A stretch of DNA of 64,000 bases from Escherichia phage NHEP10: the sequence record PQ511148.1; one strand, given 5' to 3'. The notes below the pieces were generated by a model. That model saw only the letters and a program-made list of their open reading frames with translations, was not told the origin of the DNA and searched no databases. Positions 40,796 through 41,167 of this stretch are shown here, piece after piece (the first letter of the stretch is position 1; each line of letters opens with the position of its first letter). The position numbers and the translations under genes were made by a program.

Positions 40796-40813
40796 GGGAG
40801 ACTTCGGTCTCCC
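40796..40813 (+). terminator. intrinsic terminator after gene 23
   Basis: GGGAGAC-UUCG-GUCUCCC followed by AUUUUUGG. Confidence 0.65.
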
Positions 40814-40823
40814 ATTTTTGGTT

Positions 40824-41093
40824 TTATTTCTGTGCAATTTCGATGTAAGTTTTCAAAATATTTTGCCAATTAGGCATACCTTCTTGGACATATGCCGGAG
40901 AGCCGTCTTTGTTTTTGAATGACGCAAGTTTATCAGTGGCCCAATAACCTTTAGCTCGAGCTTCAGAATCAACTTTCATCCATACTTTGTTGAAGGCATT
41001 ACCATTAACTTTTGCACCATATTTTTCTACTAACTTAACTGCTTCAGCTTCTAGAACTTTTAAAGTACCTCGTAAGAAACGTGCTTTAGTCAT
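40824..41093 (-). CDS. hypothetical protein, 89 aa, inserted between genes 23 and 24
   Basis: ORF track; GAGGAG SD; family-B promoter cassette upstream. Confidence 0.6.
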   Translation of the reverse strand: MTKARFLRGTLKVLEAEAVKLVEKYGAKVNGNAFNKVWMKVDSEARAKGYWATDKLASFKNKDGSPAYVQEGMPNWQNILKTYIEIAQK

Positions 41094-41123
41094 TTTGTTT
41101 ACTCCTCTGTAGTTGATAAGTCT

Positions 41124-41153
41124 ATAGTATCACATACCAAATACGTTGTAAAC
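41124..41153 (-). promoter_or_regulatory. early-type promoter, family-B cassette, for ORF 40824-41093
   Basis: -10 TACTAT at 41124-41129, -35 GTTTAC at 41148-41153. Confidence 0.55.
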
Positions 41154-41159
41154 AATCTT

Positions 41160-41167
41160 TATAAATA
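41160..41167 (+). promoter_or_regulatory. late promoter TATAAATA for gene 24
   Basis: exact motif 28 nt upstream of ATG. Confidence 0.6.

Follow-up and report, generated by a model that had tools for sequence, protein, structure and literature searches.

A putative early transcription unit set backwards between the late genes 23 and 24 of an RB69-like phage, and the variable contents of its slot

A small gene for an 89-aa protein in Escherichia phage NHEP10 appears, from its promoter, its ribosome-binding site and its reading frame, to form a self-contained early transcription unit set backwards between two late genes, those of the major capsid protein (gene 23) and of the capsid vertex protein (gene 24). 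Positions given without a further identifier are those of the window, that is, the whole stretch of 64,000 nucleotides that was analysed (sequence record PQ511148.1). The reading that we favour, with a probability of about 0.55, joins this early unit to a product that would be dispensable and non-structural and would act as an effector on a host or nucleic-acid target; confidence is high for the part that concerns the gene and its transcription unit, and stands at about one in three for the part that concerns function. The 89-aa ORF is an ordinary accessory gene, predicted and annotated earlier, and not a novelty; as it stands, it is one more accessory gene of T4-like phages without a characterised role. 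The elements of the locus are the following.

39203..40771, plus strand: gene 23, major capsid protein, 522 aa, the upstream flank (from the ORF list and near-identical Mosigvirus annotation)
40795..40814, plus strand: intrinsic terminator of gene 23, with an 8-bp stem TGGGAGAC/GTCTCCCA, a UUCG (TTCG) loop and then the U-tract TTTTTGGTTT
40824..41093, minus strand: 89-aa ORF of the RB69ORF188c / PHROG 6003 family, read from its ATG start at 41093 to 40824 (from the ORF list)
41102..41107, minus strand: Shine-Dalgarno sequence GAGGAG, 8 nt 5' of the ATG (from reading of the sequence)
41124..41153, minus strand: T4-type early (sigma-70) promoter, with -35 GTTTAC at 41153-41148, an 18-nt spacer, TGn and -10 TACTAT at 41129-41124
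41160..41167, plus strand: late promoter of gene 24, TATAAATA, 27 nt 5' of the gene 24 ATG
41195..42478, plus strand: gene 24, capsid vertex protein, 427 aa, the downstream flank (from the ORF list and near-identical Mosigvirus annotation)

The window is a Mosigvirus genome, this genus comprising the RB69-like members of the T4 group, and the 601 bases around the 89-aa ORF share 99-99.5% identity with many Escherichia and Shigella phages of the same genus. In most of the records listed, from more than 200 genomes, the small ORF is annotated as a hypothetical protein, while the annotators of phage PhAPEC2 described it as 'similar to RB69ORF188c'; it is not named in the literature searched. Its product matches PHROG 6003, a family with no known function, over the entire length (E = 9.2e-45, residues 1-89 against profile positions 1-90 of 90). 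The dN/dS ratio of the gene lies between 0.08 and 0.15 in comparisons at moderate divergence, where synonymous change is unsaturated, and its reading frame is retained down to 30% identity between genera; by these measures, the small gene is real and under purifying selection.

The promoter assignment relies on several features. GTTTAC, a spacer within the 17-18 nt of T4-type early promoters, a TAnnnT -10 hexamer accompanied by TGn, and the correct orientation are all found upstream of the small gene. Across the window, the pattern GTTTAC-N16-18-TANNNT occurs 15 times against 3.3 expected, a count reached in 0 of 100 shuffles, and 13 of these 15 sites are on the minus strand, which is the usual direction of T4-type early transcription. 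The small-gene promoter belongs to a subset ending in ..TGTG(A/T)TACTAT, and this fits the 'family B' to which the first-pass annotation had assigned it. A second sub-family, unlike the promoter of the small gene, is represented in the window by four early-type promoters on the minus strand (175-204, 1471-1500, 8019-8048 and 8351-8380), which share a near-identical spacer and -10 region, GTTTACA..(T/G)ATAGG(G/A)(C/T)TATGTTATAGT. The predicted early transcript of the small gene would begin with a leader of some 24 nt that includes a strong ribosome-binding site. The -35 hexamer of the promoter is placed back to back with the late promoter of gene 24 on the opposite strand, 6 bp apart. Among eight T4-type sequences compared, six (from Mosigvirus, Dhakavirus and uncultured relatives) have the early promoter at -59/-60 from the ATG, a variant being present in contig L012 (GTGTAC at -35) and in phage VR7, and GGAG-type motifs occupy the equivalent place in relatives of the small gene. 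We infer early transcription of the small gene because this promoter consensus is conserved in the relatives.

The hairpin downstream of gene 23 has a folding energy of -16.4 kcal/mol (z = -3.8 against shuffled sequence) and is the sole terminator-like site in the 800 bases scanned (40600-41400). On the gene 23 strand, a GC-rich hairpin is followed by a U-tract, as is typical of intrinsic terminators, whereas in the minus-strand direction it leads into AAAAUAAG, with no U-tract; for this reason it is predicted to be a canonical terminator for gene 23 only and not for the small gene. The end of the 89-aa ORF is 10 nt from the hairpin, and its stop codon (40824-40826) falls within the T-rich tail of that terminator. 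Most relatives without a segD-like gene downstream have kept the hairpin sequence; that of VR7 differs. At the other end of gene 24, the same convergent layout is found with rnlB (RNA ligase 2), whose minus-strand coordinates are 42514-43512; at this junction (42478-42520), a terminator is marked on each strand in near-identical records.

All of these elements had been recorded before, as predictions for RB69 in 2006 and as annotations in GenBank. The SA79RD record carries a T4-early-like promoter, a late promoter and a terminator at the equivalent positions, and that of PhAPEC2 a terminator. For RB69, the supplement of Nolan et al. (2006; PMC1524935) lists Pe:109605 as early promoter, on the minus strand and with a score of 29.9, Pl:109573 as late promoter, and a terminator under the label '23-><-RB69ORF188c'. 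The signals around the small gene have thus stood as predictions for RB69 since 2006 and are not new; a transcript map of a Mosigvirus covering the small gene was not found in the literature searched. The first-pass annotation had described a reverse-strand 89-aa ORF inside the late structural operon, with its own family-B early promoter, a gene 23 terminator at 40796-40813 and a gene 24 late promoter at 41160-41167, and this description holds: the ORF lies at 40824-41093 on the minus strand between genes 23 and 24, GTTTAC-N18-TGn-TACTAT is at 41153-41124 on the same strand, the hairpin spans 40795-40814, and TATAAATA is exactly where it had been placed. It had also named an untranscribed or untranslated ORF, or a conserved structural gene, as the finding that would overturn it; the dN/dS of 0.08-0.15, the strand opposite to the head genes and the early-type promoter favour a coding, non-structural reading.

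The family is carried by 240 phage records, half of them Mosigvirus-like, while about 2,560 records have a gp23 homologue. In most Mosigvirus records, the copy of the gene encodes a protein with 97-99% identity to that of the window, a difference of one or two residues. In Dhakavirus (JS98 orf173) and in Gaprivervirus (VR7ORF190c), the slot is filled, again in reverse orientation, by homologues at 30-38% identity, and uncultured relatives have members at 61-71% and at 34% identity, again in this slot. The term 'inserted', used for the gene at first, overstates recency, the same slot and orientation being found in three genera and in uncultured relatives at only 30-38% identity. In a Gaprivervirus-type genome with a homologue, the C-terminus of gp23 is 86% identical, compared with 30-38% for the small ORF between genera; therefore, the small protein evolves far faster than its flanks, yet is constrained.

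Members of the family are also found outside the T4-type phages. Acinetobacter phage ABPH49, filed under Vequintavirinae, has a relative within a run of small ORFs, as has the related metagenomic contig L017, while in contig L018, whose tail-tip gene is about 70% identical to that of Serratia siphoviruses of about 42 kb, the relative is located just after the tail genes. No cellular copy was detected in two scans of one genome each of 185,579 bacterial and archaeal species. In IMG/VR, all that the broad alignment retrieved were T4-type contigs 155-172 kb in length, known Dhakavirus and Gaprivervirus isolates included, and a scan of the same collection with the outlier subfamily returned nothing. 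From this phage-only spread over unrelated phages, it follows that the family has been exchanged between unrelated lytic phages. Furthermore, the copies outside T4-type phages argue for a target that is not specific to T4 or to T4 head assembly, and for a protein that would work on its own.

From a structural perspective, prediction gives a soluble and basic product of about 10 kDa, in which three helices and a beta-hairpin form a compact fold. The AlphaFold2 model, obtained with a 15-sequence alignment, reaches a pLDDT of 92.5 and a pTM of 0.79 and places the helices at residues 3-25, 31-48 and 76-88 and the beta-hairpin at 52-70; a relative in BFVD, at 31% identity, has the same predicted fold (TM 0.84). 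The pI is 9.7 for the window protein and 9.3-9.8 in all eight sequences computed; this charge could, however, stem from the Lys-rich composition of an AT-rich genome, and K3 is the sole invariant basic residue of the family, which counts against the reading that we favour. Residues K3, F6, G31, N32, N35 and Q70 are invariant in all backgrounds, and N30, L14, L21, A45 and S57 nearly so. Searches of Pfam, NCBIfam, PADLOC, the PDB and BFVD gave no informative match to the small protein: a sequence-profile search of the PDB yielded nothing below E = 0.029, PADLOC, a collection for defence proteins, gave weak sub-threshold matches to two distant members only, and the matches in NCBIfam were weak and inconsistent. 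A profile search of 1.84 billion representative proteins recovered only about seven true relatives.

Several candidate matches were considered and rejected. The match to Pfam DUF4859 (E = 0.0031) scores 17.8 bits, against a gathering cut-off of 22.6, and is shared by 3 of 15 members, all near-identical. Two giant repeat proteins, P0022 (Big_2/LRR repeats; E = 5e-15) and P0024 (other Ig-like repeats; E = 2e-6), owe their apparent significance to weak scores summed over repeats. The Big_2 Ig-like domain itself was also discarded, as a single repeat of P0022 gives an hhalign probability of 0.28%, the score being summed over eight repeats, and the model of the small protein is mainly helical. P0020, a 160-aa protein whose C-terminus matches the family over a short stretch, was set aside. 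Two homologues carry functional names, namely 'NADPH-dependent curcumin reductase CurA' for P0006 (JGI) and 'glycosyl hydrolase family 25' for a copy in phage EAWsc9 (PQ341120.1, 9994-10254); neither has Pfam or NCBIfam support in members of the family, and both names look like mis-annotations.

The composition and the place of the protein also suggest another role, namely that of a nucleic-acid-binding regulator with a job local to the phage, such as the control of the expression of genes 23 and 24, of the fate of their mRNA, or of the switch between early and late promoters. Consistent with this role are the conserved basic charge (pI 9.3-9.8), an invariant polar NGN..N motif at the N-terminus of a helix, adjoining the beta-hairpin, and the position beside genes 23 and 24, fixed across three genera; in addition, an unterminated transcript of the small gene would continue, in antisense direction, into the 3' end of gene 23. 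On the other hand, the structure searches detected no helix-turn-helix or other nucleic-acid-binding fold, relatives are found in unrelated contexts of phages that are not T4-like, and T4 and several genera build their heads without the small gene. Such a local regulator is considered improbable, though it is the most probable of the rivals.

The reading of the small gene as an accessory effector gene gains a wider setting when the contents of the gap between genes 23 and 24 are compared across T4-like phages, a comparison that had been proposed with the first description of the locus. In all cases examined except Krischvirus and Slopekvirus, the slot has the same frame, consisting of the stop of gene 23, the hairpin, an optional cargo in reverse orientation, and TATAAATA about 35 nt before gene 24. 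The gap was found empty, or occupied by the small gene, by segD, by both in tandem, or by other cargo, as follows.

Hairpin and late promoter only (empty gap): Jiaodavirus and Winklervirus (both 81-89 bp), Bragavirus
Small gene, reverse strand: Mosigvirus, Dhakavirus, Gaprivervirus, uncultured relatives
Small gene, then a segD-like gene after 3-4 nt: phage F2, phage 04086
segD or another endonuclease gene alone, reverse strand: T4, PST, Citrobacter phage Ursula
segD-like gene, forward strand: Slopekvirus (Matisse)
Putative nuclease/acetyltransferase of 475 aa, reverse strand: Lazarusvirus, Acinetobacter phage Apostate (L035, 3136-4563)
Wholly different gene order in the region: Krischvirus (Brandy)

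In Aeromonas phage Aes508, the 440-bp gap between the two genes contains no convincing ORF. Two peculiarities of the flanking genes were also observed. Gene 24 is duplicated in tandem (24a/24b) in L003, L004, L012 and L014 (Dhakavirus, Gaprivervirus and uncultured relatives), and not in Mosigvirus, T4 or phage 04086. In Shigella phage JK36 (L036, 232-2645), gene 23 appears as two overlapping 'major capsid protein' CDSs that together span about 2.4 kb, compared with 1.57 kb; the gene may have been duplicated internally or have received an insertion, or the assembly may be at fault.

The homing-endonuclease gene that the first-pass annotation had placed near this junction of T4 is segD, whose product is of the GIY-YIG type, and it occupies exactly the same slot in the same orientation in T4 and PST. 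The small gene and segD are not strict alternatives: the two are found in tandem in F2 (L011, 3001-3930) and in 04086 (L005, 2501 to about 3430), where the endonuclease is unannotated, and with a spacing of 3-4 nt the segD-like gene would be co-transcribed from the early promoter of the small gene. Moreover, F2 is a mosaic across this region (L011, 2830-3010), in which the start and the leader of gene 24 are near-identical to the Mosigvirus window up to ..CCTTAT, while beyond this point both promoter region and small gene follow the type seen in the Dhakavirus phage 04086; the pattern therefore indicates a recombination breakpoint inside the intergenic cassette. A one-base variant of the early promoter, ATTTAC-N18-TGn-TATTAT, is located 5' of segD in T4 (NC_000866; L037, about 6234-6300, minus strand) and in PST (L006, about 4322-4390), at the homologous position and back to back with the late promoter of gene 24. 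In the review by Edgell et al. (PMC2988022), no promoter specific for segD could be found. Since the same frame carries differing cargo, the gap behaves as a fixed expression dock.

This shared slot is also what suggests that the small gene might be a part or a relic of mobile homing-endonuclease cargo, for instance a helper of SegD, a factor that shields the target site, or a domain left behind. The presence of SegD-like genes in the same place, the segD-like start codons 3-4 nt after the stop of the small ORF in F2 and 04086, and the mosaic structure of F2 would all agree with such a link. The proteins themselves do not: hhalign gives a probability of 1-2% against the SegD proteins of PST and F2, and Pfam returns no match, so that identity with a GIY-YIG protein or a relic of SegD was rejected; together with the lack of a match to any named family, this bears out the earlier statement that the slot here holds an unrelated protein. 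Furthermore, the slot is free of endonuclease genes in the loci examined in Mosigvirus, JS98, VR7 and uncultured relatives, no endonuclease is annotated next to the copies outside T4-type phages, and the small ORF is under purifying selection on its own. A link with the endonuclease cargo is, on balance, a distinctly poor candidate.

The distribution of losses bears on whether the phage requires the product. No copy of the small gene is present in T4, PST, Jiaodavirus, Winklervirus or Bragavirus. In phage mogra (L029) and in the independent metagenome contig ERZ13616402 (L028), a shared A5->A4 deletion, equivalent to about 41021-41025 of the window, frameshifts the gene (about 1388-1656) and leaves two pieces of 38 and 51 codons. 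Another frameshift is found in P0019, a copy of the Dhakavirus type. These alleles could be propagated assembly errors, though one of them is common to two genomes, those of mogra and ERZ13616402, which differ at other sites. From this pattern we infer that the small gene is probably dispensable for basic growth.

The same pattern weighs against a minor head protein or virion-associated protein, taking part in capsid assembly or packaged in the particle, as might be supposed for a gene between 23 and 24; a virion role could also draw on a weak and non-significant PHROG match to an 'internal virion protein' family (E = 0.038). In fact, frameshift alleles are found in viable phages and T4 does without the gene; the gene, which lies on the strand opposite to the head genes, is preceded by an early promoter and by no late one, and the records of PhAPEC2 and VR7 flag the neighbouring head proteins as structural virion proteins and not the small ORF. 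The small protein is thus probably not a virion component, and a role in the particle is very unlikely. The weakest alternative, a chance or non-functional ORF in an intergenic spacer, could draw on the frameshifts in some genomes and on the lack of any function or publication found for the gene, but is already contradicted by the dN/dS of 0.08-0.15, the frame preserved across genera at 30% identity, the confident predicted fold common to a distant relative, and the conserved promoter and ribosome-binding site.

The preferred reading, an early unit encoding a dispensable, non-structural effector, can be stated as a sequence of events. The host sigma-70 RNA polymerase would transcribe the unit in the first minutes of infection, and the product would be a cytoplasmic protein of 10 kDa and not a component of the virion. 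It would act in trans on a host or nucleic-acid target, most likely by stoichiometric binding, in host takeover or in counter-defence. The gap between genes 23 and 24 would serve as a reusable expression dock, in which the same promoter frame and hairpin carry the small gene, the small gene with segD, or segD alone.

A bolder and more tentative version, which we regard as a possibility clearly less probable than the preferred reading, takes the phage-only family as a new early effector of host takeover or counter-defence and the dock promoter as one that also drives segD. The protein of the window would then be the founding member of an uncharacterised family, with a fold that has no informative solved match, and this family would have moved between at least three kinds of phage, represented by T-even-like myoviruses, by ABPH49 (filed under Vequintavirinae) and by L018 with its kinship to Serratia siphoviruses. 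T4 segD, long believed to have no promoter, would have a slightly degenerate early promoter. A true new early effector, small, predicted to fold well and restricted to phages, would be of modest interest, as it would be common to unrelated lytic phages of Enterobacterales and Acinetobacter. Its probable dispensability means that a deletion mutant should be easy to make and test, and the comparison of the slots suggests a testable promoter for T4 segD. Moreover, the gap emerges as a recombination hot spot within an otherwise rigid block of head genes, where one regulatory frame accommodates different cargo.

T-even phages make small early accessory proteins, such as Arn, Dmd, IPI* and Stp, with host factors or defence proteins as binding partners; among known systems, these offer a parallel by analogy alone: they share with the small protein a size of about 10 kDa, an early promoter, dispensability, fast divergence and a patchy distribution. 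No sequence or structural relation between them and the small protein was found, and the latter, being basic, is no DNA mimic. The gene falls exactly in the class of 'novel ORFs' with predicted early promoters described by Nolan et al. (2006; PMC1524935), who reported that 13 of 57 putative early promoters of RB69 precede ORFs without a T4 counterpart, and that a few ORFs of this kind stand single between conserved genes; the spread beyond T4-type phages, the predicted fold, the contents of the slot and the loss-of-function alleles were left unexamined in that study. From RB69ORF188c, JS98 orf173 and VR7ORF190c, the gene of the window shows no difference of substance, as family, slot, orientation, promoter and terminator are the same. 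Finally, T4 segD differs from the small gene in its product, of 223 aa compared with 89 aa, and in the GIY-YIG domain, which the 89-aa protein does not have, while the two genes are alike in their slot, their reverse orientation, the homologous promoter-like cassette, the flanking hairpin and the late promoter.
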